From: a virus
Lineage: Duplodnaviria; Heunggongvirae; Uroviricota; Caudoviricetes
Virus record (IMG/VR): IMGVR_UViG_3300031555_002573
Span: 44,572-108,571 of that record
Length of the DNA: 64,000 bases
Direction: 5' to 3' (one strand)
Below the pieces are notes generated by a model. It did no database searches, was not told where the DNA came from, and worked only from the letters and a program-made list of their open reading frames with translations. Of this stretch, positions 41,642 through 55,551 are shown piece after piece. Each line of letters starts with the position of its first letter. The stretch's first letter is position 1. A program made the position numbers and the translations under genes.

Positions 41642-42805
41642 TTGATTATTGATGGTAAGAGAGCACTAGCTTATGTTGCTACTCTAGATGAGATTAAACC
41701 CATTGAGGGTTATGACAGAGTACAACACGGAAGAACTTCTGGTTGGTGGTGTATCATCAACAAAGCGGATGAGATGAACGTTGGGGATAAAATTGTTTAC
41801 TTTGAAGTAGACAGTAAAGTTCCTGCAACAGAGCAGTTTGCATTCTTGGGGAAGCGTAATTACAAGATTAAGACTCTCAAGATGTGTAAAGTACTTAGTC
41901 AAGGTCTTATTATGCCCTTGTCTGCATTTCCACAGTTTAATTATGAAAAGACCTCGGTCGGAACCGATTTGACTGAAGCTCTTGGAGTGAAGTATGCGGA
42001 GGCGGAAGATGAGTCCCGTAAGAACGGTAACCCTAATGCTAAGTATGAGTCGATGAAGGCACGCCATAAAAACCTATTTAAGAAGCCTTGGGCAAAGTGG
42101 ATGATGAAACGAGCTTGGGGTCGTAAAGTAATGTTCTTCTTCTTTGGTAAGAAGAAAGATAACCCTCGTGGGTTCCCATCATTCGTTTCTAGGACAGATG
42201 AAGAGCGAGTTGAGAATCAACCTTGGCGTATCGGTGATGGCAAAGAGTATCTTTGTACTGAAAAACTTGATGGGACTTCTTGTACTTATGCACTTGAGAG
42301 AAAAGGCAGAAATAAGTTTGAGTTCTATGTGTGCTCTCGTAATGTAAGACAAAAAGATGAAACTCAAGAATGTTATCACGACCACAACATATATTGGGAC
42401 TTGGCATTCAAGTATAACATTGAGGAACATCTTAAAGAGTATCTAGATATATTCCCCGACAGAAAATGGGTATGTATTCAAGGAGAAGGCGTTGGAACGG
42501 TACAAGGTAATCCTCTAAAGTTAAAAGAAGATGACTTGTATGTGTTCAACCTCAAAGACTCTTTAAGAGGTAGATACAGTTCTCAAACTGGCAAAAAGTT
42601 CATTGAGGATTGGGGTATGAAATGGGTACCGATTATTGGCATTGTAAAGATGCCTGATACAATGGAAGAACTTAAGGCACAAGCAACTGGACCTTCTCTG
42701 GTAAATCCTGATGTCCTTCGTGAGGGATATGTATATAGAACTCTGGATGGTCAAGAGAGTTTCAAGAATGTTTCAAATGAATATTTACTTAAACATAATG
42801 GTTAA
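41642..42805 (+). CDS. RNA ligase-like nucleotidyltransferase (Rnl1 type) with an N-terminal extension
   Basis: Motif I EKLDGTS (KxDG), EGVG...LKLK, and motif IV REGYVYR followed by FKN. Confidence 0.4.
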   Translation: MIIDGKRALAYVATLDEIKPIEGYDRVQHGRTSGWWCIINKADEMNVGDKIVYFEVDSKVPATEQFAFLGKRNYKIKTLKMCKVLSQGLIMPLSAFPQFNYEKTSVGTDLTEALGVKYAEAEDESRKNGNPNAKYESMKARHKNLFKKPWAKWMMKRAWGRKVMFFFFGKKKDNPRGFPSFVSRTDEERVENQPWRIGDGKEYLCTEKLDGTSCTYALERKGRNKFEFYVCSRNVRQKDETQECYHDHNIYWDLAFKYNIEEHLKEYLDIFPDRKWVCIQGEGVGTVQGNPLKLKEDDLYVFNLKDSLRGRYSSQTGKKFIEDWGMKWVPIIGIVKMPDTMEELKAQATGPSLVNPDVLREGYVYRTLDGQESFKNVSNEYLLKHNG

Positions 42806-44147: not shown

Positions 44148-44630
44148 ATGAAATTTGAAAAAATAGGATATCTTCAATTTAAGGCAGATAAGCTTGATGC
44201 TCTTATTGATTATGAGAGCATCAAACTCCCGAAAAGAGCGACAAAATACTCTGCTGGTTATGATATTTATAGCATTAGTGATTTTACGCTACATCCGGGG
44301 GAAACAATTAAGTTGCCTACTGGACTTAAGATGGAAATTGATGAAGACAAATTTCTGTTAATTGCTCCTCGTAGTGGTCAAGGATTTAGTTACAAGGTAC
44401 AACTATACAATACTGTTGGTGTAATTGATTCAGATTATTATAATAATAAGAACAATGATGGTCACATTTGGGTAAAGTTGTACAATGATTCTCCTGAGGG
44501 TAAAGTGCTTGAAGTACATAAAGGGGATGCCATTTGCCAAGGAATTATTCTTCCCTATTATAAAGTAGAGGGTGACATTTCACATGAGGAGCGAGAAGGT
44601 GGATTTGGGTCTACTTCGAGTATGATTTGA
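44148..44630 (+). CDS. dut: dUTPase
   Basis: AGYDIYS, PRSGQG, GVIDSDY and REGGFGSTS motifs. Confidence 0.75.
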   Translation: MKFEKIGYLQFKADKLDALIDYESIKLPKRATKYSAGYDIYSISDFTLHPGETIKLPTGLKMEIDEDKFLLIAPRSGQGFSYKVQLYNTVGVIDSDYYNNKNNDGHIWVKLYNDSPEGKVLEVHKGDAICQGIILPYYKVEGDISHEEREGGFGSTSSMI

Positions 44631-44654
44631 GAATAATCAAGGGGTTAATGTGTA

Positions 44655-44876
44655 ATGACTTATGAAATTCCAATGACTGTAAAAGAGTGGTTTGATGCAT
44701 ATTTTTGTTCTAACTTTGAAGATTTTAAAGTATTCACGGGTGGAATTATTTATATGATTGAAAAGTCAGGACAAATGACTTTGATATTTATTGAAGCACT
44801 AGAGGACCTTACAAAATACTATAATAAAAATGTTGTACAAGTTGATGGGTGTAATAGATTAATTTTCAAGGAATAA
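44655..44876 (+). CDS. hypothetical small protein
   Basis: GTG start after an AAGGGG RBS. Confidence 0.4.
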   Translation: MTYEIPMTVKEWFDAYFCSNFEDFKVFTGGIIYMIEKSGQMTLIFIEALEDLTKYYNKNVVQVDGCNRLIFKE

Positions 44877-44884
44877 ATATATCA

Positions 44885-45091
44885 ATGACATATAGAGAGT
44901 TATTAAATAAGTTAAGTGATGAAGAGTTTGGGCAAGCAATAATTGATGATGTAGTGCTACACATGTCTTGTAATTGTTCCATAGTTGATGGGAAGCCGGT
45001 TTGTCCATATGAGATAGGGGATTGCTTAAAATGCGTTGTAAGACTATTGTCCTCTGATGTAGATGATATAGAGGCCATAAATAGTCTATAA
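44885..45091 (+). CDS. hypothetical small Cys-containing protein
   Basis: 68-aa ORF. Confidence 0.4.
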   Translation: MTYRELLNKLSDEEFGQAIIDDVVLHMSCNCSIVDGKPVCPYEIGDCLKCVVRLLSSDVDDIEAINSL

Positions 45092-45121
45092 TTAAAAAAA
45101 ATTATTTTACTTTTATTAAAA

Positions 45122-45156
45122 AATAGTTGACTTTTAGAGTTTTTTGTAGTATAATA
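45122..45156 (+). promoter_or_regulatory. conserved extended promoter (18-nt spacer)
   Basis: aaatagTTGACTttt..gtagTATAAT. Confidence 0.55.
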
Positions 45157-45189
45157 TGAGTACAAACTAAACAAAGGGGACTACATATT

Positions 45190-45402
45190 ATGATGAGCAA
45201 GAAGTCTAAAAGAAATGTTCGACTTGGCTTGATTGTGATAAAAAATGTTCTTAAGTTTTTATACACAATTTCTGCCATAGCGTTGTTGTTATGGATTGGA
45301 TTTTCTATCATAGAAGTGTGGATTCAAAACTGGAATATGTCAAGTGAATCTCCCAATGTATATTCCTCTTTTAATGTGTTTGAAGTCCTGTTCAAAGTGT
45401 AA
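45190..45402 (+). CDS. small membrane protein
   Basis: AAAGGGGA RBS; hydrophobic core; immediately downstream of the promoter at 45126. Confidence 0.45.
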   Translation: MMSKKSKRNVRLGLIVIKNVLKFLYTISAIALLLWIGFSIIEVWIQNWNMSSESPNVYSSFNVFEVLFKV

Positions 45403-45900
45403 GTACATAACTATTAGTAAGATTTATCCGTAGTGAGTATAAAGCCATATCGAGTATGCTACAATGTACAAACTCAAGGAAACGGGAAAGACGATTAGTT
45501 TAAAGTAAGAACGCTGGGTAACAATCGCAGAGATTTCGGTGAGCCTAAGTCCGATATCGTCTGAACCAATAACCATCTGTACAATGGTTGAATTGAGAGT
45601 AGCAGAGTTTAGTGTTCATGGTGTAGAGGTAGCACGCTGGCCATAGAGGGTCGGAGGGTTGGGTTCGAATCCTGATGACACGACCGAAAAGAAAAACTCT
45701 TAAAAGTACAGAGATATGAAAAAGCAAGGTAACAGTATAGAACTTGGTCGGTATAATTAATGAGTGAAAATAATCTATGAAAGTGATTATTAGAAAAAGA
45801 CCGTTGGAAGTGGTTGCAAACACGAACCCAACCCTTGCTCCTAATGGTGAAAGTCCATTAGCGGACACAATTTAAAAATAAATTGTATAAAAATAAATAA

Positions 45901-45935
45901 ATTAGTTGATTTTTATACAAATATGTACTATAATA
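45901..45935 (+). promoter_or_regulatory. conserved extended promoter driving a transcript with no ORF
   Basis: attagTTGATTttt..acTATAAT. Confidence 0.55.
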
Positions 45936-46485
45936 TGTTTGTAAATTGGTTAGGGCCAAGCAGAAAGTAGACCCAAAGAGCTAATAGCTGTCGCCCCCAA
46001 TTTCATATATGCCATTCTAGTAACGGCAATTACTAGTGAGGATGTTGCCGAATCCAAAAGGTTATGCACTCACCACAAGTTAATAGTGCACAGACAGCTC
46101 GCCTGTTGAGGAGTGAAGAACAAGTTGAAGCCCGCATGAAACTTGTCACCAGAATCTGATGGTAAAGAGGAAGGTTAATCGCGGCGGGATATATTGTAGC
46201 GGTGCAAATCCGATATATTCTGGATGGATGCGCTGTGGAATAGACGAGTAGTTGGTTTTCCTAACGGTGAATACAAGCTTGTTTCCACCCAGAATGAATC
46301 CGCCAAGGCGGCGGGAAATTAAGGACAGCAGGAAAGCTCTCGCATTAGTATAGGTGACAATGGAATAACTTGTTCTAATGTAGAAGCCGTAAGTACTCAG
46401 TAATGAGATACGCGGGACTTTGTTGAGAGACAGAGCTTTGGGTAGCCAGTGGGAAAAGCTATCATTTATATATTATTTTATTAAA

Positions 46486-46520
46486 ATAGTTGACTTTTTG
46501 TAGAGTTTGATGTATACTAT
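46486..46520 (+). promoter_or_regulatory. conserved extended promoter (TTGACT, 18 nt, TATACT)
   Basis: aaatagTTGACTttt..tgTATACT. Confidence 0.5.
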
Positions 46521-46670
46521 ATACACAGTTAATATTCCTTTAACAACAGTGGGAAACGAGAACAAGCGGACTCGTGGATGTAGGATGGGTAGGTTTTCTA
46601 CATCAATAATTGTATATAATATTACTAGTGAAGATACAACAAATAGTTAGTGTGCTACTCATATCTATAT

Positions 46671-46757
46671 GCGGGATTGGTGGAATAGGCAGACACAAGG
46701 GACTTAAAATCCCTCGGTGGTGACATCGTATCGGTTCAAGTCCGATATCCCGCACCA
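46671..46757 (+). tRNA. tRNA-Leu(TAA), CCA encoded
   Basis: GCGGGAT/ATCCCGC acceptor; anticodon arm AGGGA-CTTAAAA-TCCCT; long variable arm; T arm ATCGG-TTCAAGT-CCGAT. Confidence 0.8.
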
Positions 46758-46820
46758 ATGTCGAAGTTTGCTAGAGTTCGTCGCGACTTTAACCCTAAAC
46801 TAGCTCTTCCTTTCGTAAAT

Positions 46821-46897
46821 GCAAGAGTAGTTCAACGGGTAGAATATAGTAGCCTTACAAGCACTATCTATTGGTTCGAATCCAATCTCTTGCACCA
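46821..46897 (+). ncRNA. tRNA-like gene with an aberrant anticodon region (possibly a degenerate tRNA-Val(TAC))
   Basis: Perfect acceptor GCAAGAG/CTCTTGC, D arm and T arm ATTGG-TTCGAAT-CCAAT, CCA encoded. Positions 27-43 do not form a 5-bp stem; an ATAGT/ACTAT stem encloses the 12-nt loop AGCCTTACAAGC. Confidence 0.4.
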
Positions 46898-46919
46898 TAC
46901 ATACTGTTTATTATAATAT

Positions 46920-46994
46920 GGCCCGGTGGTCAAGCGGTTAAGACACCGCCCTTTCACGGCGGTAACACGAGTTCGATTCTCGTCCGGGTCACCA
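46920..46994 (+). tRNA. tRNA-Glu(TTC), CCA encoded
   Basis: GGCCCGGTGGTCAAGCGGTTAAGACACCGCCCTTTCACGGCGG...; near-identical to the Bacillus tRNA-Glu. Confidence 0.85.
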
Positions 46995-47524
46995 TAACAA
47001 TGTAGATGCTAATATAGGCGGCGCGAAAAGGGTATAATGAAAAGTTATGCTAGTGGACATGTCGTTACCACCGAGAAGCGGGAACTGCTCCTATGGCTGT
47101 AGGTTCCTTACATTGTTTAGGCACAATAAGGTGTAATGAGCCTGTTGAAGTTGAAATGATATATACTTCTTCGGTACTGATACTTATCATGTGTTGTGTT
47201 TGAGGTTATTCCTACTACCTGTACCATAAACAGGGGAAGAGTTAGAGTGTAGGAACAGAATATGTAGCGTATATACATAAGGTCGCTAATAGATGATAAG
47301 ATTGTACTAACAACAATCTAATGCGCGATGAGTATCAGATATTAGTGGGCTGTATAAACTATAATAACTGAATAGTATGATACGAGGCGGCTGGCCCAGT
47401 AGGGTACATTGAACTAAATCGTAGTGTTAGTTCCTGTTGATAGGATGCGGTGAGGCGATGGCAGACCAACTTAAACTTTTGAAGTGTCTTGGCCATTAGT
47501 AGTTGATTACGACTAAAGTTATTG

Positions 47525-47598
47525 TAGTAGATATGCGGGATTGGTGTAATGGTAGCACAACAGCCTTCCAAGCTGTTGGTGCCAGTTCAAATCTGGTA
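47525..47598 (+). tRNA. tRNA-Gly(TCC), CCA encoded
   Basis: Anticodon arm ACAGC-CTTCCAA-GCTGT; discriminator U. Confidence 0.8.
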
Positions 47599-47632
47599 TC
47601 TCGCTCCAAGTAATTAAAAAATATTTTTTATA

Positions 47633-47665
47633 ATAGTTGACTTTTTGTAAAAAATATTGTATAAT
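47633..47665 (+). promoter_or_regulatory. conserved extended promoter
   Basis: taatagTTGACTttt..tgTATAAT; upstream of the Met-Gln-Ile-Val tRNA group. Confidence 0.6.
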
Positions 47666-47690
47666 ATATAGTGTTCTAAATAATAGATAA

Positions 47691-47767
47691 GGGCCTTTAG
47701 CTCAGTTGGTTAGAGCCCCCGGCTCATAACCGGTCGGTCGTAGGTTCGAGTCCTACAAGGCCCACCA
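47691..47767 (+). tRNA. tRNA-Met(CAT), elongator type (or Ile2), CCA encoded
   Basis: GGGCCTT/AAGGCCC acceptor (G1-C72); loop CTCATAA. Confidence 0.8.
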
Positions 47768-47773
47768 ACAACA

Positions 47774-47849
47774 TTGAGGTGTAGTCCAACGGTTAGGACA
47801 ATGGACTTTGACTCCATTGATGTAAGTTCGATTCTTGCCACCTCAGCCA
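47774..47849 (+). tRNA. tRNA-Gln(TTG), CCA encoded
   Basis: U1-A72 acceptor TGAGGTG/CACCTCA; anticodon arm ATGGA-CTTTGAC-TCCAT. Confidence 0.8.
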
Positions 47850-47983
47850 ACCCACAGTATAGTTGTGTTTAGAATTATTAATTAGAAGCATATCTGATGG
47901 GAAGGATATGCGGAAGGGTACAAAGAAGACTATACCGGATTTGTAAATTAAGTGTCGTTGCTTACCCCTCAACGAATGTACAT

Positions 47984-48059
47984 GCACCACTAACTCAATG
48001 GTTAGAGTACCTGGCTTATATCCAGTTAGTTCGGGGTTCGAATCCCTGGTGGTGTACCA
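47984..48059 (+). tRNA. tRNA-Ile(TAT), CCA encoded
   Basis: Anticodon loop CTTATAT on a CTGG/CCAG stem; T arm CGGGG-TTCGAAT-CCCTG. Confidence 0.65.
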
Positions 48060-48130
48060 ATACGGAAGCTGAAGATTATGGGTTCAGTAGTGTAGGAGTT
48101 TCGGAAGGTTGACTTCTACAGCGTACATAT

Positions 48131-48207
48131 GCGGGATTAGCTCAGCTGGTTAGAGCACCTGCCTTACAAGCAGGGGGTCATTGGTTCGAGTCCAATATCC
48201 CGCACCA
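48131..48207 (+). tRNA. tRNA-Val(TAC), CCA encoded
   Basis: GCGGGAT...CCTGC-CTTACAA-GCAGG...ATTGG-TTCGAGT-CCAAT. Confidence 0.85.
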
Positions 48208-48470
48208 GTTAAATTAGAATAACTGTAATTGAGGGATGGAAAAGTCTAATAGGGTTGAGGTCTTACAGTGTTGTAAGTGAGTCAGCTTGGAGACTCAAGA
48301 GGATGTGGAGAGGTCAGCGTCTAAGTGACACAAGATTAGCTTATGAACGCGTGGTAAATCTTATTGGATGGGGCACTAGATAGGATGTGCTAAGGAGTAG
48401 GAGTAATACCTATGCCTACTGTGTAAATTATAGTTATCTAGTTTAATTTTTAAAGACAATATATTCATAT

Positions 48471-48553
48471 GCCGATGTGGTGGAATGGCAGACACGCCTG
48501 TCTTAGGAGCAGGTACGAAAGTGTGAAGGTTCGAGTCCTTTCATCGGCACCAA
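48471..48553 (+). tRNA. tRNA-Leu(TAG), CCA encoded
   Basis: Loop CTTAGGA; long variable arm; acceptor GCCGATG/CATCGGC. Confidence 0.8.
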
Positions 48554-49268
48554 TCGGGAATCCCGGGTACTTATTAGTTCATACCGGTAAGTAAGCAATG
48601 TCCCGACCCCAAGAGGTCAAGCCCCTCTGTACAAGGCTATGCGGCACTGTCCGAAACCAAGCAGCGTTTGTAAGTATACTCGTTAAAACTTTCCGCGATT
48701 CAGTTTGTTTGTAGTTGTTACCGCGTTCCAGTGTAAGAGGAATAGATAAAGACTTCAACTGCTCGGATTTGTTTACTCCGATGAAGCATCATAAGGAATC
48801 CAATGATGGTAAACAAAATAAGGTGCCACGAAGCTTTATCAATTTTGATAAGGATTGTTACCCAAAGTACAAGGGAGTGCAGAAGCAGTGGTAAATGGAG
48901 CGGAATGAACAGCCTTATTTTTGAATAATGTGCCGCATTCACCTCAACAATTCGTCGAAAGATGTTGGTGTTACGAAACGGCTAAGTGGAATTTGAGAGA
49001 CAGCATTATTCTGTGGTATCAAGATATCTTGACTAAGTGAGTAACATTCAGTTACGATGCCACAATAGACTTGCCATAGGTCGAGATACCTTCGAGGCTT
49101 GGAGCAACGAAGTAAAATAAAGTCCCCAAGATGTTACTAGGTCAGAACAACTAGTCGCCGCAAGGTAGAGCACAAGTGTTAGAGGTCGATAGGGTATATG
49201 GCACGAGCCCGATTAGGTAATGACAAGGCGTGTAAATGTGCAGAATCGCGAAAAACCTCCGCTTATAT

Positions 49269-49348
49269 CTAGGTGTTGGGGAGTTTGGTCACCCCGCCAG
49301 TTTTGGGAACTGGAGAACTCGTGAGTTCGAATCTCACCACCTAGACCA
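49269..49348 (+). tRNA. tRNA-Pro(TGG), CCA encoded
   Basis: C1-G72 acceptor CTAGGTG/CACCTAG; anticodon arm CCAGT-TTTGGGA-ACTGG. Confidence 0.75.
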
Positions 49349-49614
49349 GCCGGAAGAGATGGTCCTTCATCACCCTCACTTCACAAGGTAGCTCTTGTAT
49401 AAAGAAGAATGATGAACACATTTTTGGTTTGATGTAAGACTTTCTATGAGGTTAAGAAAGAAAGGAAACTCATGTTGCAACAGGGTTGGTAAACCTCTCT
49501 AACGGGAGAAAGCTTCCAATATATGTGCAGATTGATATCGGATTATATCGGGGAGGAGTCATTACCTCTTGGGGACGCCCTTGGCAGGTTCAAGTCCTGC
49601 ACTGTACACTATAT

Positions 49615-49691
49615 GCAGATGTAATTCAGTTGGTTAGAATGCTCGTCTGATACGCGAGTCGTCAATGGTTCAAATCCATTCATCTGCACCA
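49615..49691 (+). tRNA. tRNA-Ile(GAT), CCA encoded
   Basis: Anticodon arm CTCGT-CTGATAC-GCGAG; T arm AATGG-TTCAAAT-CCATT. Confidence 0.8.
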
Positions 49692-49745
49692 TTTAGATGT
49701 AATTTCGTTGAAAGTACTATATATTATTTTTAACGAAATGAGTAT

Positions 49746-49819
49746 GCGGGTATAGTTTAATGGTAAAACCCCTGCCTTCCAAGCAGATGATGACAGTTCG
49801 ATTCTGTTTACTCGCTCCA
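49746..49819 (+). tRNA. tRNA-Gly(TCC), second copy, CCA encoded
   Basis: Loop CTTCCAA; acceptor GCGGGTA/TACTCGC. Confidence 0.75.
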
Positions 49820-49994
49820 ATAAGTGAATAGCGACTTAGTTAACTGTTGCAACAGTTACAAACTGCTTGTGGGATGCGAAACCCCTGAAGTATAACTCAC
49901 TACAATACATGGAGGAAAAAGCCATCAATGGACTTCTGCAAGATGTAAAATACAGGAGGTAAAGGTTGTTATTAGTGAGATGACAATCATATAT

Positions 49995-50079
49995 GGATGA
50001 GTTGCATAGTGGCAATTGCAGCGGACTGTAAATCCGCCGTCTCACGACTACGCTGGTTCGAGTCCAGCCTCATCCACCA
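49995..50079 (+). tRNA. tRNA-Tyr(GTA), CCA encoded
   Basis: Anticodon arm GCGGA-CTGTAAA-TCCGC; long variable arm; T arm GCTGG-TTCGAGT-CCAGC. Confidence 0.85.
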
Positions 50080-50420
50080 GAGGGAAGTTGACTTTGAGTA
50101 TTTCAAACACACCTACTAATAGTGGTAGTAAATACTATACATGGGTTGATTTGCACGGGGCAAATAAGTAGTATAATAAGTACAGAAGTAAAAACTGCGG
50201 AAGAAACCGCCAAGCGGGTCCGAACCGGTGTAGGATGGACGAGTCTCTCTGGAAAGTTATATGAAAAAAGAGCGGTTCGAGTCCGTTATAACCCACCACT
50301 GGTAGAAATGTTAGCAAAAGAAGTCACTACCTCAAACGATTGTATCAACTTAATAAGTGTAGATTATTCGGTATCAAATTGACGGATGTGCGGTTAGCCG
50401 ACCTTAAGGTGTTATATACG

Positions 50421-50520
50421 GATAAGTAAACTGAAATGGGTACAGTAGGGTAATTGCCTGTACGGTTCGATTCCGTCTTGGTCTTGGCAGATATGCTGGT
50501 TCGAGTCCAGTCTTATCCAT
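50421..50520 (+). ncRNA. tRNA-like element (about 100 nt) with a perfect acceptor stem, D arm and two T-arm-like hairpins, no canonical anticodon arm, no encoded CCA
   Basis: GGATAAG...CTTATCC acceptor; D arm ACTG/CAGT; hairpins ACGG-TTCGATT-CCGT and GCTGG-TTCGAGT-CCAGT. Confidence 0.35.
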
Positions 50521-50603
50521 CAAATAAGCCCTGTCCGTGGTAAAAGTCGGTAAAGAGGTGTAATCCCACCAGGCAATTAAATAAGTGAGTTAAAAGATTA
50601 TTT

Positions 50604-50679
50604 GGGGGAGTAGCCTAACGGCTAGGCACACGACTTTTAATCGTGACCACGTAGGGTTCGACTCCCACCTCCCCCACCA
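50604..50679 (+). tRNA. tRNA-Lys(TTT), CCA encoded
   Basis: GGGGGAG/CTCCCCC acceptor; anticodon arm CACGA-CTTTTAA-TCGTG; weak T stem. Confidence 0.75.
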
Positions 50680-50825
50680 GGCGCTGATAGGTAGCAAATA
50701 ATAGCAGCGACAGTGGGCACTACAAAGTGTGTTAACAAACTAATATGTGTGGTAACCGAGTACCTTAAGCGGTGTTAAATATGGAGACATGGGTTAGAGG
50801 ATTAAATCACCTCTCTCCATATATG

Positions 50826-50908
50826 GCTATGTAACTCAATCGGTAGAGTTTTTCGGTACCACTTAACAAAGAGTTGTTAGTTGCAAGTTCGAGTCTTGCC
50901 ATAGCCAA
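50826..50908 (+). ncRNA. tRNA-like element lacking an anticodon arm
   Basis: Acceptor GGCTATG/CATAGCC, D arm ACTC-AATCGGTA-GAGT and T arm GCAAG-TTCGAGT-CTTGC are canonical. The 33 nt between them contain only a TAACAA-AGAG-TTGTTA hairpin. No CCA. Confidence 0.4.
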
Positions 50909-50922
50909 ATATTTTTTATTTA

Positions 50923-50956
50923 ATAGTTGATTTTCAAATTATTTTATTGTATAATG
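50923..50956 (+). promoter_or_regulatory. conserved extended promoter
   Basis: taatagTTGATTttc..tgTATAAT; upstream of tRNA-Arg. Confidence 0.55.
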
Positions 50957-51007
50957 AATATGTCAAGTGAGTTTGAACACATCACTATGCTACCAATATT
51001 AATATAT

Positions 51008-51085
51008 GCGCCCTTAGCTCAGCAGGAACAGAGCATCTGCCTTCTAAGCAGAGGGTCGGGGGTTCGAGTCCCTCAGGGCGTGCCA
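51008..51085 (+). tRNA. tRNA-Arg(TCT), CCA encoded
   Basis: Anticodon arm TCTGC-CTTCTAA-GCAGA. Confidence 0.8.
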
Positions 51086-51291
51086 TTTGCAGGTAGCTCC
51101 TGCTGATTTGAGAGGACAGTATTGCCCTCAATAAGAATGACAATGACATACTACAATATGTTTTAGTGACATAATCAGCTGTAACGATGTGCTACTGTCG
51201 TGTACGAGTATTAGAACAAACGGCACAATGACGGTATGATAGGATAGGCTCCTTGATGGGATGTATTGTATTGTGTAAGTATACTTGATAT

Positions 51292-51384
51292 GGAGGAGTA
51301 CCCAAGTAGGTGAAGGGGCGAGTTTGCTAAACTTGTAGGTCGGAGTAATTCGGCGCGGGAGTTCGAGCCTCCCCTCCTCCGCCA
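51292..51384 (+). tRNA. tRNA-Ser(GCT), CCA encoded
   Basis: 3-bp D stem; loop TTGCTAA; long variable arm; T arm GGGAG-TTCGAGC-CTCCC. Confidence 0.8.
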
Positions 51385-51563
51385 GCTGTCGTACATGGAC
51401 GTCGCGACATTAAATGCAGATAAGCACACAAGAAGGTTGATGTCCCGTTTCAATTGATTTGGGAGTTAAAATCAAAGGTTCTTAGCTATTCCAGAAACTA
51501 AGCGTAAGTGAGAATGAAAGTGCACGCATTGTGTAACATGTAGTACGAGAAGCTACCTTATAC

Positions 51564-51652
51564 GGAGGAGTAGCGAAGTGGTCATAACGCGGCGGTCTTG
51601 AAAACCGTTTGTCCGAAAGGACACGTGGGTTCGAATCCCACCTCCTCCGCCA
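51564..51652 (+). tRNA. tRNA-Ser(TGA), CCA encoded
   Basis: Loop CTTGAAA; variable-arm hairpin GTCCGAAAGGAC; T arm GTGGG-TTCGAAT-CCCAC. Confidence 0.8.
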
Positions 51653-51671
51653 CAAGTAAACACAGATAGAG

Positions 51672-52490
51672 GTGATTTCTATGTATAGAGGATGTATCCC
51701 ATCTAAGGTTGATATCAGAGATTATAAAATTACATATTCTGCTTCTGATGTTCTACCTGCTAAGTTCAGATTAACAAAACTTCCCAAAGTAAAAGACCAG
51801 AAGTGTGTTAATTCTTGTGTAGCTCACGCTACAAGTACTATTTTAGAATACTTTGATTATCAAGATGGAAAAGGTCATGAACTATCCACAAACTTTCTTT
51901 ATGGTGGACAAAAAAAGTTGTGTGGTTACGAGGGACAAGGAATGTATCTTAGGGATGCGTGTGAAATTGCGAAAGATTATGGTGACCCGATAGAATCCTT
52001 GTGTAAGGGAAATGATGAGGTTCCTGATTCTTGGGCAGTAGCAGAAGAAGCACTTGATAATCAAGAGGCGTTGGACAACGCTAAATTTTTCAAAATAAAA
52101 TCTTATTATAGATGTGATAACATAGGTGCCATCAAGAAAGCCGTTCATAAATATGGTCCTGTTCTTGTTTGTATAAAATGGTATAATGATTTTTCAGTTG
52201 ATAGTACAGGAGTAATTCACAGTACACAAACAGGAGACTACGGATATCATGCCGTGATTATTTATGGATGGAATGACAAAGGATTTTACATTCAAAACTC
52301 TTGGGGTAGAAACTGGGGAAAGAATGGCAGAGCAATTCTTCCATATGAAATTCCAGTTGAAGAGGGAAGAGTATTGATTGATGATTCTATTGACATTGAT
52401 AAAAAAGATGTTGTTGTTCCAAAAAGAAACTCTTTGTTAGACATCTTTTGCAAAATTGCCAACTGGATTATTAATTTATTTAAAAAATAA
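51672..52490 (+). CDS. papain-like C1 family cysteine peptidase
   Basis: QKCVNSCVAHAT (Gln/Cys), GYHAVIIYGW (His) and NSWGRNWGKNG (Asn-Ser-Trp-Gly) in canonical order; GGAGGTG RBS. Confidence 0.55.
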   Translation: MISMYRGCIPSKVDIRDYKITYSASDVLPAKFRLTKLPKVKDQKCVNSCVAHATSTILEYFDYQDGKGHELSTNFLYGGQKKLCGYEGQGMYLRDACEIAKDYGDPIESLCKGNDEVPDSWAVAEEALDNQEALDNAKFFKIKSYYRCDNIGAIKKAVHKYGPVLVCIKWYNDFSVDSTGVIHSTQTGDYGYHAVIIYGWNDKGFYIQNSWGRNWGKNGRAILPYEIPVEEGRVLIDDSIDIDKKDVVVPKRNSLLDIFCKIANWIINLFKK

Positions 52491-52498
52491 TTTTTATA

Positions 52499-52532
52499 AT
52501 AGTTGATTTTTTAGTTTTTTTATTGTATAATA
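52499..52532 (+). promoter_or_regulatory. conserved extended promoter
   Basis: taatagTTGATTttt..tgTATAAT; upstream of tRNA-Thr and tRNA-Ala. Confidence 0.55.
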
Positions 52533-52608
52533 ATATATGGTGCTTAAAGGTAAGATAAGACATATGTGCTTATGAAGCGTTTTGACCATAACTCGAAACG
52601 AATCACAT

Positions 52609-52684
52609 GCTGGATTAGCTCAGTTGGTAGAGCAACGCACTTGTAATGCGTAGGTCGTCAGTTCGAGTCTGACATCCAGCTCCA
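52609..52684 (+). tRNA. tRNA-Thr(TGT), CCA encoded
   Basis: Anticodon arm ACGCA-CTTGTAA-TGCGT. Confidence 0.85.
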
Positions 52685-52687
52685 TAT

Positions 52688-52763
52688 GGGCCCGTAACTC
52701 AGCTGGGAGAGTGCCACCCTTGCAAGGTGGAAGTCGTGAGTTCGAATCTCATCGGGTCCACCA
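52688..52763 (+). tRNA. tRNA-Ala(TGC), CCA encoded
   Basis: Anticodon arm CCACC-CTTGCAA-GGTGG. Confidence 0.85.
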
Positions 52764-53548
52764 TGTTGTACCTTGAAAGATGAATACATACTAACTCAGT
52801 GCTAAACAACGAATACGCTTTCGTTGCTGAGAAAGGTTGAATGTGCTGGGAACACACGAAGACGGATACGTTGGATAGTTCGCCGGACTCTAATTCGTGA
52901 GGGTTAGAGGTAAGAGGTTGATAGCCCAAACACAAGACCTTGTACTAGAGTTATTCCCAAATAAGGGCAGAATGTGTATCGTGGGAACAATAGAAAGATT
53001 GAGTGAACAGCTCTTTCCGAATCCAAGTTAGGGTTTAGCCGGTGACTGTATCAAACCTTGGAAATACCAACAATCCCATTGGTCGTGAAGCATAGAAATA
53101 TGTGTATAAGATATGCATGTCATCTCCAAGTAGCCGAAGACCTTGACAAACTGATAAATTATCTACTTGAGATAGTAAATAATTTTCTGAACAGACGGTG
53201 AAAGGTACAGGTAACCAGACCTGTGGTAGCTCGTGTGGAAAGCGGCGGATATCTAATCCGTGCGGCTAACTCCTCGTGGCAAGAAGTTAGAGGTCGCTCC
53301 TCGAAGCTCAGACTTGTCATCTACATAGCTTAATATATTTGAGAATAATTGTAGCAACCCGAAGGGGTAGTAGATGTATTTGTCTTTCAGGGTACAATTT
53401 ACAATACATAGACCTGTTGGTTATGCTTACTATAAGAGTAGTTCAGCTCATTACTTGATGAAATTATAAGTAAGAAACACAGTAGATGCTAGCTCTATTT
53501 TCTTCGGAAGCAGGTCATTGGCCAGGGGATGCGTCCTTTGGCTTATAT

Positions 53549-53622
53549 CGCAGTGGTGGAGCAATGGTAGCTCATCGGGCTCATAATCCGAAGACGAGGT
53601 TCGAATCCTACGACTGCACCCA
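53549..53622 (+). tRNA. initiator-like tRNA-Met(CAT) with irregular acceptor and T stems, CCA encoded
   Basis: TGGAGCAATGGTAGCTCATCGGGCTCATAATCCGA closely matches the Bacillus tRNA-fMet core. C1 x A72 mismatch; only 3 bp in the T stem. Confidence 0.5.
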
Positions 53623-53771
53623 GCTTTTTAGGTTTATACACATTGTTTACAGTTAAGCATATCAAACTACAAACAAGTGGGTGTATTTACTAGTTTTCTA
53701 CCATAAGATGTAAACTAGTCGGTGGTTATGAAGTACCTGTGGAATACCGTCATAGAAAAACTTCATTATAT

Positions 53772-53859
53772 ATCCGAATGGTGTAAGGTAGCATATCACA
53801 GAGTGCTCTAAAAGAGACGAGATTGTGAGGATGAGGTTCGAGTCCTCTTTCGGGTACCA
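53772..53859 (+). ncRNA. tRNA-like element with acceptor, D and T arms and CCA but no anticodon arm
   Basis: ATCCGAA/TTCGGGT acceptor; D arm TGGTGTAAGGTAGCAT; T arm TGAGG-TTCGAGT-CCTCT; ACCA 3' end. No 5-bp stem plus 7-nt loop anywhere in the 37-nt central region. Confidence 0.35.
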
Positions 53860-54097
53860 AACTTCTTTGGTATAGTATAATGCGTCTTATCTATGCAATC
53901 CAAGGCTATGATAAGCGACCTATAACAGAAGACAAATTGATGCATCAATCGTTTCACCAAGGTGTGAGCGTGTCAACATTCCAAGAGTAAGAACTTTGGT
54001 TGAGGAATGAGAAGTTTATTTATATAAAGAATGAACAGTTAGCAACGCTTGAGGTAACCTTATAAAAACTCAGCCCTGCTACCATATGGCTCCATAG

Positions 54098-54174
54098 TAC
54101 AGTTGGTCAGTACGCTAGCCTGTCACGCTAGAGGTCGCGGGTTCGAACCCCGCTGGAGTCGCCAATCTTCCATA
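54098..54174 (+). tRNA. tRNA-Asp(GTC), CCA encoded
   Basis: Anticodon arm CTAGC-CTGTCAC-GCTAG; discriminator G. Confidence 0.85.
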
Positions 54175-54199
54175 ACTAATTTCTATAATTTTCTATTTA

Positions 54200-54233
54200 A
54201 TAGTTGAAATAATTTACAATATGTAGTATAATA
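54200..54233 (+). promoter_or_regulatory. conserved extended promoter (TTGAAA -35)
   Basis: taatagTTGAAAtaa..gtagTATAAT. Confidence 0.5.
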
Positions 54234-54262
54234 AATACGAAGTAAAAACAAGGAGAGTACTT

Positions 54263-54571
54263 ATGGAAACTACAAATCATTGGAATAGTAGAAATGATAG
54301 ACTCGCGTTCATTCAGAAAGAAATTGGAATTGGTAAGCCTGTTAAAACATTTAAGTGGGACAAGGGGCATCCTAATGGTCCAGAGCTACATACTATAACT
54401 GATACTGGAATTATTATCATTAGAAATGCTCTAACCAATAAACTTGTAACTACTTTAATTGCAAGGCCCGGACAAATAAAAAGATACTATGACAAACTAA
54501 AGACTGAAGTTCCGGAATTCATAATGAAACTTGCTTATGAACACGAGCAAAAAGGTTATAATTACATATAA
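54263..54571 (+). CDS. hypothetical protein
   Basis: AAGGAGAG RBS; downstream of the promoter at 54204. Confidence 0.5.
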   Translation: METTNHWNSRNDRLAFIQKEIGIGKPVKTFKWDKGHPNGPELHTITDTGIIIIRNALTNKLVTTLIARPGQIKRYYDKLKTEVPEFIMKLAYEHEQKGYNYI

Positions 54572-54584
54572 AATTATTATTAAA

Positions 54585-54618
54585 ATAGTTGACAAACAAC
54601 TCTATTAAGAGTATAATA
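54585..54618 (+). promoter_or_regulatory. conserved extended promoter (TTGACA, 17 nt, TATAAT)
   Basis: aaatagTTGACAaac..gagTATAAT; upstream of tRNA-Asn. Confidence 0.6.
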
Positions 54619-54655
54619 AATAGCATAGTAAACAAACTGCTATGCTATTAGATAT

Positions 54656-54732
54656 TCCCCTGTAGCTCAGCTGGTGGTAGCATCTGACTGTTAATCAGAG
54701 GGTCGCTGGTTCAAGTCCGGCCGGGGGAGCCA
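54656..54732 (+). tRNA. tRNA-Asn(GTT), CCA encoded
   Basis: Anticodon arm TCTGA-CTGTTAA-TCAGA; preceded by a 10-bp leader hairpin. Confidence 0.8.
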
Positions 54733-55003
54733 GGGTGTGTAAGAAAGCAAATGTGCCCACACACGTTGTCAATAAAAAGGGAAATGTGCAGTTTCGGCTA
54801 CTTCAACCGACCAATTAAATATCATCACTGTCGCCCAGTTTCTCTGACAAAATCACAATAAGTAGTGTTAATTCGTTGTACATTTCTCTTTCCTCCTTCG
54901 ATTTTATTGAACTCAAAAAATAACAACACTCCTTTCGTTTTTATGTTTACAACACTACTGGCGACAGTTTATTTTTATATTAAAGAGGGTTATATGCAAA
55001 AAA

Positions 55004-55551
55004 TAGTTGTTTCAGATATGGACGATGTGCTTGTTGATTTAATACCTGCTTGGGTTGATTTGTTGAATAAACAACATAATAGAAATGTAAATTATAAAGA
55101 TATTACTGAATGGGATATGCATATTTCATACCCAGGACTAACTGACAAAGAATTGTTCGGTGTGCTTAACACAGAAGAACTTTGGAAGAGTGTTCAACCA
55201 AAAGTAAATGCTGTTGAAGGCGTAAAAAGATTTATAGATGATGGTTATAAATTTTATGTCTGTACAGCTTCTCACTACAAGACGATAGCTAATAAAATGA
55301 CACATGCACTTTTCCCTTATTTTAATCTAAATTACCAAGACATAATTGTATGTCACGACAAACATCTAATACACTGTGACTATATAGTAGACGATAACCC
55401 CGAAAATCTAAAACATAGTTCGGCAATTAGGTTTTTAATGGATACTCCACATAATCAAAAAGCAGATATGCATCATTACGATTTTAGAGTATCTTCTCTA
55501 TTGGATATGTATAATATTATAAAGGAGTTGGAAAGACTAGAAAATGAATAA
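55004..55551 (+). CDS. 5'(3')-deoxyribonucleotidase (HAD superfamily, NT5C family)
   Basis: IVVSDMDDVLVD matches VLVDMDGVLADF; FYVCTASHYK...DKHLIHCDYIVDDNPENL matches FICTSPIKMFKYC...DKTVVSADLLIDDRPD of NT5C enzymes. Start set at the ATG after an AGAGGG RBS. Confidence 0.65.

Follow-up and report, generated by a model that had tools for sequence, protein, structure and literature searches.

Why does a phage keep, among its transfer RNA (tRNA) genes, elements that are shaped like tRNAs at both ends and have no normal anticodon arm between them? The question is raised by a 64,000-nucleotide (nt) stretch of a Caudoviricetes virus (positions 44,572 to 108,571 of IMG/VR record IMGVR_UViG_3300031555_002573; hereafter the window), for which an initial annotation, made from the sequence alone, had proposed a family of tRNA-like genes that keep acceptor, D and T arms and lack a functional anticodon arm. 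We call these elements, together with others found here, E1 to E6 and X (Table 1), and describe their structure, their conservation and covariation among related phages, the leader that they have in common, and the slots in which they are equivalent to true tRNAs. Our working answer, to which we give about half of our confidence, is that RNase P and 3'-end enzymes may act on them as tRNA-derived processing cassettes, or natural 'tRNA scaffolds', and cut them out.

Results

Acceptor and T arms without a canonical anticodon arm

When the sequence was scanned for a 3' strand that lies after a consensus T arm and matches an upstream 5' strand at 7/7 pairs, most canonical tRNAs of the array were recovered, together with E1, E2, E3 and E4. 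Outside the array, over the 64 kilobases (kb) and both strands, the same scan returned just two AT-rich spurious matches, and E1 to E4 are therefore not chance matches. Each of the four has an acceptor of 7 base pairs (bp) stacked on a 5-bp T stem with a TTCRANY loop, and each has the GG-containing D loop and consensus T arm that had been reported. The perfect acceptor stems of the initial annotation were thus confirmed for E1 to E4, with one U.G pair in E4, and not for E5, whose acceptor has mismatches. E6 and X, which had been overlooked, have acceptors of 6 bp plus an A.A mismatch each. The T arms fit GGTTCRANYCC, reading GCTGG-TTCGAGT-CCAGT in E2, GCAAG-TTCGAGT-CTTGC in E3, TGAGG-TTCGAGT-CCTCT in E4 and GCAGG-TTCAAGT-CCTGC in E6, and all elements lie on the + strand among the array tRNAs.

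Anticodon arms were sought as a 5-bp stem with a 7-nt loop carrying U33 and R37. The best candidates in E1, E3 and E4 pair at 3/5 positions, and no such arm was found in E2, E3, E4, E6 or X. The reported absence of a 5-bp, 7-nt arm accordingly stands for E2, E3 and E4, and has to be qualified for E1, which keeps the loop CUUACAA on an irregular stem. The intron option of ARAGORN, one of the checks originally suggested, regained no canonical arm: it returned nothing for E2, E4, E5, E6 and X, a spurious 3-nt 'intron' for E1, and no canonical tRNA from E3. On this search, E3 and E4 were rejected as intron-containing tRNAs. In addition, a deletion scan for inserts ending in CCA gave 16 candidate cases in related loci and 0 in the window.

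Against the Rfam tRNA model (RF00005; gathering threshold 29 bits), E1 scored 49.5, E3 46.9, E4 29.9, E5 27.3 and E2 20.4 bits, and E6 and X gave no match. The passing scores of E1, E3 and E4 stem from the acceptor, D and T arms only. For the elements, no Rfam family other than tRNA was matched at E <= 1 (44500-55500), including transfer-messenger RNA (tmRNA) and Y RNA-like, and neither of these two was matched at E <= 10 in the three sub-stretches searched.

For comparison, more than 170 related loci (L numbers below) were collected from metagenomes and IMG/VR, with the Peptidase_C1 gene of the array and a protein of 102 amino acids (aa) at 54263 as markers; L002, L084 and L085 are strain-level contigs identical to the window and hence uninformative for covariation. 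In the orthologues of E2, E3, E4 and E6, 97-100% of pair cells are standard and 6-12 pairs are changed on both sides, compared with 0-3 in shifted-partner controls. These stem-keeping changes on both strands argue that E2, E3, E4 and E6 are not decaying pseudogenes. E1 to E6 and X are several independent tRNA derivatives, not the single family first described: E1 is Val-derived, E2 is Tyr-like, E4 and E5 have a Gly-type D arm, and E6 belongs to a separate six-member family.

E3 has a nearly invariant central domain

Alongside the acceptor GGCTATG/CATAGCC, E3 has D and T arms. Where the anticodon arm would be, a single strand of about 13 nt (UUUCGGUACCACU) leads into a 7-bp hairpin capped by an AGAG tetraloop. 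This is the tetraloop hairpin of the initial annotation, seen here as TTAACAA-AGAG-TTGTTAG. The Rfam alignment skips the whole anticodon arm and has 27 nt instead; the ARAGORN label Gly(acc) was rejected as a forced call on a stem with 2-3 real pairs. The leader of E3 is TATAT, and CCA is not encoded.

The homologue of E3 (L092:2500-2583) lies within a 156-kb contig that is syntenic with the window. Between the two sequences, 100% of pairs are standard and 6/23 are changed on both sides, in the acceptor and T stems (controls 0-1): GGCTATG/CATAGCC becomes GTCCCAG/CTGGGGC, and the T stem GCAAG/CTTGC becomes GTAGG/CCTAC. The centre (UUUUUCGGUACCA-N-UUAACAAAGAGUUGUUAGU) differs by one substitution and one indel, and is identical in 30/32 columns versus 33/51 elsewhere (Fisher p = 0.003). 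Such near-invariance implies an additional, putative function of the centre, and the stretch proposed to have a binding partner is UUUUUCGGUACCAcUUAACAAAGAGUUGUUAGU, with the palindrome GGUACC. No complementary site that could mark an antisense partner was found within the window, and GGTACC is not enriched there (8 sites versus 5.9 expected). A GGUACC common to E3 and the 3' end of E4 was dismissed because it is not conserved in L092.

E2 has a T-loop hairpin in the anticodon position

E2 is a six-helix RNA. Its acceptor stem (GGATAAG/CTTATCC) is followed by an extra D-like hairpin with GG in its loop, a short hairpin (loop GUAAUUG), a copy of the T arm (ACGG-TTCGATT-CCGT) at the place of the anticodon arm, a variable-arm hairpin and the T arm; both of the tandem T-arm-like hairpins noted at first are thus present. 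At the 3' end, the discriminator A is followed by TCA, and CCA is not encoded. Together with two homologues (L004:503-606 and L042:1813-1911), E2 shows 97.5% standard pairs, and 11/27 pairs, spread over all six helices, are changed on both sides (controls 0-2). A covariance model of the family (R1) scores its three members at 107-120 bits and the next match, the tRNA-Ser of the window, at 43.9 bits; E-values of the covariance models built here are rough.

The closest tRNA of the window is the class II tRNA-Tyr, with acceptor GGATGAG versus GGATAAG in E2 and a near-identical T arm. In the alignment of R1 to tRNA-Ser, also of class II, the short hairpin of E2 corresponds to the D arm, the T-loop hairpin to the anticodon arm and the third hairpin to the variable arm, and the 17-nt D-like hairpin is an insertion. 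In the three members, the loop at the anticodon position is UUCGAUU, UUCGACU or UUCAAUU, each time with a pyrimidine at 37. Given this T-loop consensus, the pyrimidine at 37 and the shifting 'anticodon', E2 does not decode. Its Rfam tRNA match arises only through an alternative register. ARAGORN reads the L004 copy as tRNA-Ser(cga), a call that was rejected because the alternative inner acceptor is not conserved.

E6 and X extend the set

The acceptor of E6 comprises 6 bp and a conserved A.A mismatch. E6 also has three hairpins, one D-like (loop CGGATT), a second one, and a third of 3 bp with a GACG tetraloop, as well as the T arm given above and a discriminator A; CCA is not encoded. ARAGORN finds nothing at this position. 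The family has six members (the window, L005:3220-3310, L083:384-473, L004:48-145, L075:473-558 and L081:589-674), in which 100% of pairs are standard and 12/19 are changed on both sides (controls 0-3). Its covariance model (R2) gives the members 78-93 bits and the next match 35.5 bits. In the window, E6 stands 3 nt upstream of tRNA-Ile(GAU) at 49615, 7 nt from its own acceptor end at 49607.

In X, the 5' end GGGTTGA pairs with ATAACCC beside the T arm AGCGG-TTCGAGT-CCGTT, ACCA follows, and the body includes the hairpin TTTGC-ACGGG-GCAAA. X is kept in L018 (~1668-1805), where both the 5' hairpin and the T stem (CGG/CCG to AAG/CTT) have changed in a compensatory manner. A promoter inside X (TTGATT...TATAAT) was considered; it is not conserved in L018 and is hence taken as part of the RNA. 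ARAGORN finds no tmRNA at X. The promoter-like block upstream of X (GTTGACTTT..N..TACTAATAG), which escaped the simple promoter scan, begins right after the CCA of a tRNA: Tyr in the window, Pro in L078 and L092, and Phe in L007.

E4 and E5 carry a Gly-type D arm

The acceptor of E4 is ATCCGAA/TTCGGGT, including the U.G pair, and its centre consists of a 5-bp stem (UCACA/UGUGA) closed by a 23-nt insert versus the usual 7-nt loop, with an inner hairpin CUCU-AAA-AGAG. A syntenic homologue (L092:8661-8751) keeps the D arm. Over the two sequences, 96.9% of pairs are standard and 8/16 are changed on both sides, including 7/7 in the acceptor (controls 0-3). The centre of the L092 copy is likewise a long irregular hairpin of unrelated sequence, with no common loop, and the orthology of the two copies rests on synteny and the common D arm.

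E4 and E5 do have a D arm in common, as had been pointed out; it is not unusual, being essentially that of the tRNA-Gly(UCC) of the window at 47535 (TGGTGTAATGGTAGCA; E4, TGGTGTAAGGTAGCA; E5, TGGTGTAGAGGTAGCA). E5 does not hold up as a stand-alone element. Its match to the tRNA model, over 45612-45682, scores 27.3 bits, below the threshold of 29, and it is a domain of a larger RNA of ~440 nt, in which it caps the helix AGAGTTT/AAACTCT. The ~440-nt block is 69% identical to L007:12039-12454 over 459 nt, with the flanks kept, and L007 has a different tRNA-like insert at the E5 site.

E1 is a tRNA-Val paralogue

E1 has the acceptor GCAAGAG/CTCTTGC, a GG D loop and the T arm ATTGG-TTCGAAT-CCAAT. 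What had been read as a 12-nt loop is aligned by Infernal as a 7-nt loop, CUUACAA (anticodon UAC), closed by G-C and C-G on an irregular anticodon stem that is broken and lengthened by insertions of 2 nt and 1 nt; the variable loop is 2-4 nt long, depending on the drawing. The best match among the tRNAs of the window is Val at 48131, with which E1 has a 12-nt block (GCCTTACAAGCA) and the T stem in common, the loop and its closing pairs being identical as well. In L005, the slot after tRNA-Leu(UAA) is held by a normal Val(tac), 97.5% identical to the Val of the window. Taken together, these matches make E1 a paralogue of tRNA-Val whose anticodon stem is lengthened and bulged and whose variable loop is shortened. 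No homologue of E1 was found in the 170+ loci. The ARAGORN label Cys(aca) is again a forced call, on a stem with 2-3 real pairs.

Common leaders and exchangeable slots

TAT stands at positions -3 to -1 of 15/21 true tRNAs of the window versus 2.7% in the background. E3, E4 and E6 have the same TAT, E2 has TAC, as does tRNA-Ser(UGA), and X has CAT, as do the tRNAs for Gln, Ile and Thr. The common TAT leader fits a common 5' processing step. (T)ATAT is found directly before +1 of nearly every tRNA or tRNA-like gene between 46671 and 54732. All true tRNAs but one (Met2 at 53549, which has CCCA) encode CCA, and E2, E3 and E6 do not; the remark that the elements encode CCA 'sometimes' is right for E1 and E4 (ACCA) and does not extend to E2 and E3.

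The spacer after tRNA-Met (53623-53771) ends exactly at the 5' end of E4 in the window and in L092. E4 is absent from L175, L176, L178 and L006, where the slot holds tRNA-Asp, directly after the spacer in L175 and L176, ~5 nt later in L178 and ~85 nt later in L006. Similarly, E6 comes next after the spacer at 49349-49524 in the window, L005, L083 and L004, whereas L178 has tRNA-Lys there. In the case of X, the conserved promoter-like block precedes tRNA genes in L078 and L092. The suggestion that the elements serve as processing punctuation has in this way gained comparative support, from spacers that end at E4 and E6, from tRNA-Asp and tRNA-Lys at the same places in sister phages, and from the TAT leader. 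In relatives, similar elements also sit inside other RNAs, and the evident common factor is recognition by processing enzymes.

tRNA-like inserts within tRNAs of related arrays

Related arrays also hold nested inserts of 50-115 nt inside the anticodon loop of otherwise intact tRNAs, mostly right after U34 (Table 1). They have a 7-bp acceptor-like stem, a variable body and an N-CCA end, and some have D and T arms. The outer tRNAs all have U34: Lys(UUU), Gln(UUG), Arg(UCU), Ile(UAU), Leu(UAA) and Thr(UGU). Within the short flanks that were fetched, a search for RNA ligase genes accompanying the nested tRNAs gave a match at one locus only (L169). Literature searches found nothing relevant on nested tRNAs or tRNA-like introns in phages.

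Further tRNA-like elements without a canonical anticodon arm occur in the relatives at L092:2189-2307, L092:4751-4844, L095:5148-5261 (=L096) and L013:4946-5013 (=L014, L066). One such family is common to L092 and L095/L096 and has the conserved centre CCGAATCCCAGG(A/T)AAAAGACCA.

The array and its relatives

The window comes from a large metagenomic phage and encodes DNA polymerase, NrdD, an SbcC-like nuclease, Thy1, dUTPase and RNA ligase, and its marker proteins also occur on JGI contigs of up to 141,933 bp. The phage is present in the rumen or gut samples JGI 3300032167 and 3300029705. The tRNA array spans ~46.6-54.8 kb, all on the + strand, with 23 ARAGORN calls and one ROOL RNA recognised by Rfam; ARAGORN finds no tRNA for Phe, His, Cys or Trp in it. 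Promoters of the form aatagTTGAc-N17-TATAAT at 45127, 45906, 46490, 47637, 50927, 52503, 54204 and 54589 split the array into units. The ROOL RNA starts 8 nt past tRNA-Ala, with tRNA-Met ~160 nt downstream of it, and is found in L004 and L006 at 84-86% identity.

Long non-coding spacers, many of them kept in related contigs, separate the tRNAs and are probably undescribed structured RNAs. The spacer at 51093-51295 is 92% identical to L005, the stretch 53544-53771 is 82-85% identical to L092, L175 and L178, and a 48-nt core (49088-49135) is ~90% identical in at least eight human-gut phage loci.

The only protein gene inside the array encodes a Peptidase_C1 protein. Homologues likewise lie within the tRNA arrays of many phage contigs from gut and rumen (192 proteins at E <= 1e-10; 342 relatives in IMG/VR). 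The RNA ligase gene lies ~4 kb upstream of the array, with an SPFH/Band 7 gene after it. Of the 13 open reading frames (ORFs) of the window scanned against Pfam, none was recognised as a polynucleotide kinase.

By NrdD (64% amino-acid identity), the nearest cultured phages are the Thomasclavelia phages TR-TP1 and TR-TP2. In TR-TP2, the 35-kb stretch downstream of NrdD is densely coding and has no annotated tRNA genes. No relative of the array was found in cultured phages, with megablast and blastn searches of INPHARED matching single tRNAs only. The 80 IMG/VR loci recovered via the Peptidase_C1 marker held no BLAST homologues of E1 to E5. In exact-pattern scans, IMG/VR yielded no match to the E2 core, to the central core of E3 or to its T arm plus acceptor, and GTDB genomes yielded none to the E3 core.

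tRNAs with a CUA anticodon (ARAGORN 'Pyl') occur in related arrays (L011:4999, L027:17644, L046:3182, L056-L059 and L061:20093) and not in the window, which suggests amber-codon suppression or recoding in those phages. At L090:13734-16779, Thg1-like, metallophosphatase and KTI12/AAA_33-like proteins are encoded in a row, which may be a tRNA end-repair gene set.

Table 1. Elements, neighbouring features of the array, and nested inserts of related arrays (window positions unless a locus is named)
Feature	Position	Strand	Description
E1	46821-46897	+	tRNA-Val(UAC)-derived gene, encoded ACCA
E2	50420-50522	+	six-helix tRNA-like RNA; acceptor ends 50518, then ATCA
E3	50825-50908	+	tRNA-like RNA, last element before promoter 50927; acceptor ends 50906, then AAAT
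E4	53772-53859	+	tRNA-like RNA; acceptor ends 53855, then encoded ACCA
E5	45612-45690	+	weak tRNA-like domain: Gly-type D arm, T arm, poor acceptor; 27.3 bits
E6	49525-49611	+	tRNA-like RNA; acceptor stem ends 49607
X	50143-50291	+	149-nt RNA with tRNA-like ends and long non-tRNA body
Conserved non-coding block (~440 nt)	45427-45865	+	downstream of 70-aa ORF; carries E5
Promoter-like block, conserved 55 nt	50080-50135	+	upstream of X
ROOL RNA	52771-53389	+	Rfam RF03087, 288.9 bits, full-length
Peptidase_C1 gene	51681-52490	+	papain-family cysteine protease; sole protein gene inside array
RNA ligase gene	41642-42805	+	Pfam PHA02142 OB-fold and RNA_ligase; phrog_968
Long non-coding spacers	45940-46470, 46995-47530, 48553-49268, 49349-49524, 51093-51295, 53623-53771		no Rfam match
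Nested inserts	L013:1559-1704 (=L014, L066), L075:1343-1491, L116:248-434, L092:4446-4600		
Nested inserts	L011:4691-4823, L011:4962-5110, L100:6594-6715, L100:9767-9913		complete tRNA-Lys inside L100:9767-9913
Nested inserts	L138:3070-3257 (=L139), L018:2667-2812, L031:1592-1739, L058:4869-5013, L006:2815-2961		

Discussion

A role for these elements in RNA processing would fit what has been kept. Acceptor, T and D-corner parts are what RNase P, RNase Z and the CCA-adding enzyme use, and the parts of E2, E3, E4 and E6 that are kept by selection are exactly those used by the tRNA-maturation enzymes. On the proposed route, independent tRNA duplicates would have been remodelled, Val into E1 and a Tyr-like class II tRNA into E2, with a Gly-type D arm surviving in E4 and E5, and the TAT leader, the acceptor stacked on the T arm, the L-corner (D-loop GG plus T loop) and the discriminator A73 would have been retained. 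The elements would be transcribed inside polycistronic operons of phage tRNAs and non-coding RNAs; RNase P would cut their 5' ends, and RNase Z or exonucleases, together with the CCA-adding enzyme, would finish their 3' ends. Such a cut could set the exact end of the conserved spacer RNA upstream, much as plant-mitochondrial t-elements do, and could free a stable L-shaped RNA with a family-specific 'cargo' arm instead of the anticodon arm. The cargo of E3 appears to be under sequence selection, and we therefore propose that E3 also acts in trans; E2 and E3, at least, probably do.

Several points weigh against processing cassettes. As punctuation, E6 would be redundant 3 nt before tRNA-Ile, as would E1 between two tRNAs, and in L004 just 2-4 nt separate the E2 copy from the tRNA-Leu gene on either side. 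Punctuation would also leave the near-invariant 32 central columns of E3 and the covarying extra T-loop hairpin of E2 unexplained. Moreover, the comparisons for E3 and E4 rest on two sequences each, E4 seems dispensable, being absent from four relatives, and E1, for which no homologue was found, may be in decay or may still decode.

Perhaps, then, the elements are decoys or sponges for host defence enzymes that attack tRNAs, sparing the real tRNAs without the decoy itself translating. We regard this as unlikely. The decoy body would compete for a nuclease or transferase that reads the acceptor end, the L-corner or the variable arm, an idea that is most attractive for E2, with tRNA-Tyr as its nearest tRNA in the window and a conserved variable-arm hairpin. 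Over-expressed phage tRNA-Tyr partly protects host tRNA-Tyr and, in the words of the authors, 'may act as a decoy or supplement' (PMC13096335), a protection that speaks for decoys. So do the RNA ligase gene ~4 kb upstream of the array, the exact copy of the Val anticodon loop in E1, and the conserved centre of E3, which fits a specific binding partner. However, the variable arm of E2 differs in sequence from that of the tRNA-Tyr of the window, the central arm of E4 is not conserved in sequence, and E3, E4 and E6 are without an anticodon loop, the cut site of most known tRNA nucleases. No defence system or target was identified, and literature searches found no dedicated non-decoding tRNA decoy.

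It is quite improbable that the elements as a whole are decaying tRNA pseudogenes, left by duplication in a fast-evolving array and with no function of their own. Each does resemble a particular type of tRNA, the array contains much non-coding DNA, E1 is without a homologue and has a normal Val in its L005 slot, E4 is missing in four relatives, and the acceptor of E5 is degenerate. Yet compensatory changes keep all stems of E2, E3, E4 and E6 paired across diverged phages, the replaced centre of E3 is better conserved than its stems, the six members of the E6 family have 100% of pair cells standard, and the leader motif is kept. The contention of the initial annotation that these are no random pseudogenes is upheld by the homologues of E2, E3 and E4 and by the both-strand changes that keep their acceptor and T stems, which came from the covariation check across related phages that it had called for; for E1 and E5, and only for these, decay remains plausible.

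We hold it very improbable that the elements are working tRNAs in disguise, whether through loss of an insert and joining of the two halves, perhaps by the phage RNA ligase, or through decoding by the odd arm itself. They could in that case supply the tRNA for Phe, His, Cys or Trp, all missing from the array; the ligase gene is nearby, E1 has a perfect Val loop, and true tRNAs of related phages are interrupted in the anticodon loop by CCA-ending inserts. On the other hand, the ARAGORN intron search recovered no canonical tRNA from E2, E3, E4, E6 or X, and the deletion scan found no nested CCA-ending insert in the window. The 'anticodon' of E2 changes from CGA to CAA between homologues, and its pyrimidine 37 is a T-loop signature. 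The sole 7-nt candidate loop of E3 has 2-3 stem pairs and is broken by an indel in L092, and the central arms of E4 and its L092 homologue have no loop in common.

Wholly speculative, and to our minds barely probable, is a non-ribosomal use, for instance in cell-wall chemistry or the transfer of peptides, as carriers aminoacylated by a synthetase of the Leu, Ser or Ala type, which does not read the anticodon: discriminator A73 in all elements with a clear acceptor stem (E1 to E4, E6 and X), variable-arm-like hairpins in E2, E3 and E6, and E6-family members directly upstream of tRNA-Leu genes in L005, L083, L075 and L081 would suit it, but no element has the G3:U70 pair required by AlaRS, the D arms are unlike those of the tRNA-Leu or tRNA-Ser of the window, and no transferase gene was seen near the array.

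Returning to processing cassettes, we would tentatively, and with considerable doubt, group the free-standing elements of the window with the nested inserts, as 'tRNA-like cassettes' of phages that would form an undescribed wider class. Were the nested inserts excised by RNase P and a 3'-end nuclease, they would be a new type of tRNA intron, removed by the enzymes of tRNA maturation, and the tRNA halves would be left with 3'-OH and 5'-phosphate ends ready for rejoining by phage RNA ligase. In that case E2, E3, E4, E6 and X would be this device in free-standing form, and splicing of the nested inserts would be a new way to interrupt and rebuild tRNAs.

Phage tRNA arrays are now regarded as tools of counter-defence as well as translation, and annotation pipelines miss or mislabel look-alikes of this kind; ARAGORN, for instance, names E1 'tRNA-Cys(aca)' and E3 'tRNA-Gly(acc)'. 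Our findings suggest that nature already uses the 'tRNA scaffold' trick for stable small RNAs, and that the same trick trims long non-coding transcripts of phages, the neighbouring ROOL RNA being an example.

Comparison with known systems

Canonical tRNAs (RF00005) are the evident source: E1, E3 and E4 pass the family threshold and all elements are clearly tRNA-derived, although the anticodon arm is absent or abnormal. The tRNA-like domains of tmRNA and of YrlA, a Y RNA-like RNA, also mimic an acceptor and T arm without an anticodon, and the start of X (GGGUUGAUU) is one that we take to resemble the start of tmRNA. Unlike in tmRNA, no element has G3:U70, and ARAGORN recognised no tmRNA in the window or at any single element.

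No account of conserved tRNA-like families without an anticodon in phage arrays turned up in the literature searches. The nearest precedent in genomic setting is RNA C and RNA D of phage T4 (rnaC and rnaD; species 1 and 2), stable RNAs of the T4 tRNA cluster whose function is still unknown (PMC9697503). Like the elements, they are small non-decoding RNAs within a phage tRNA cluster and on the tRNA strand, adjoining tRNA-Arg. At 139 nt, rnaC is close in length to X (149 nt) and likewise has a consensus T arm, CCGGG-TTCGAAT-CCCGG, near its 3' end. However, blastn gives only 12-15-nt matches at the T loop, and rnaC has a long body, whereas E2, E3, E4 and E6 have the size of a tRNA, complete D and T arms, and other sequence where the anticodon arm would be. 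T4 also belongs to another phage lineage with another host, the nearest cultured relatives of the window infecting Thomasclavelia. Conserved non-decoding RNAs of tRNA shape could nevertheless offer a testable handle on the purpose of molecules of the T4 RNA C/D type.

In their presumed mode of action, the elements recall the t-elements of plant mitochondria, which are cut by RNase P and RNase Z and so define the ends of neighbouring transcripts, messenger RNAs (mRNAs) among them (PMC1920247). t-elements have a non-canonical cloverleaf with a conserved GGTTCRANYCC T arm (PMC1920247), and the spacer homology blocks that end at the 5' ends of E4 and E6, a comparative result known here from sequence, would fit a like role. 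They differ in that t-elements and the mascRNA of MALAT1 flank mRNAs in organelles or nuclei, whereas the phage elements flank spacer RNAs amid real tRNAs, and in that the sequence-conserved centre of E3 would be needless in a pure processing signal. The principle of mascRNA is presumably comparable.

E3 and E4 also find a parallel in the laboratory. Chimeras in which the anticodon arm of a tRNA is swapped for another RNA are processed and protected in bacteria (PMC3401473). In the engineered tRNA scaffold of Ponchon and Dardel, as in E3 and E4, the acceptor, D and T arms are kept and the anticodon stem-loop is replaced; the scaffold is, of course, a laboratory design, and our searches found no natural phage counterpart described as such. 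Taken by analogy, then, the elements would work most like t-elements and tRNA scaffolds, and their genomic setting is most like that of T4 RNA C and D.

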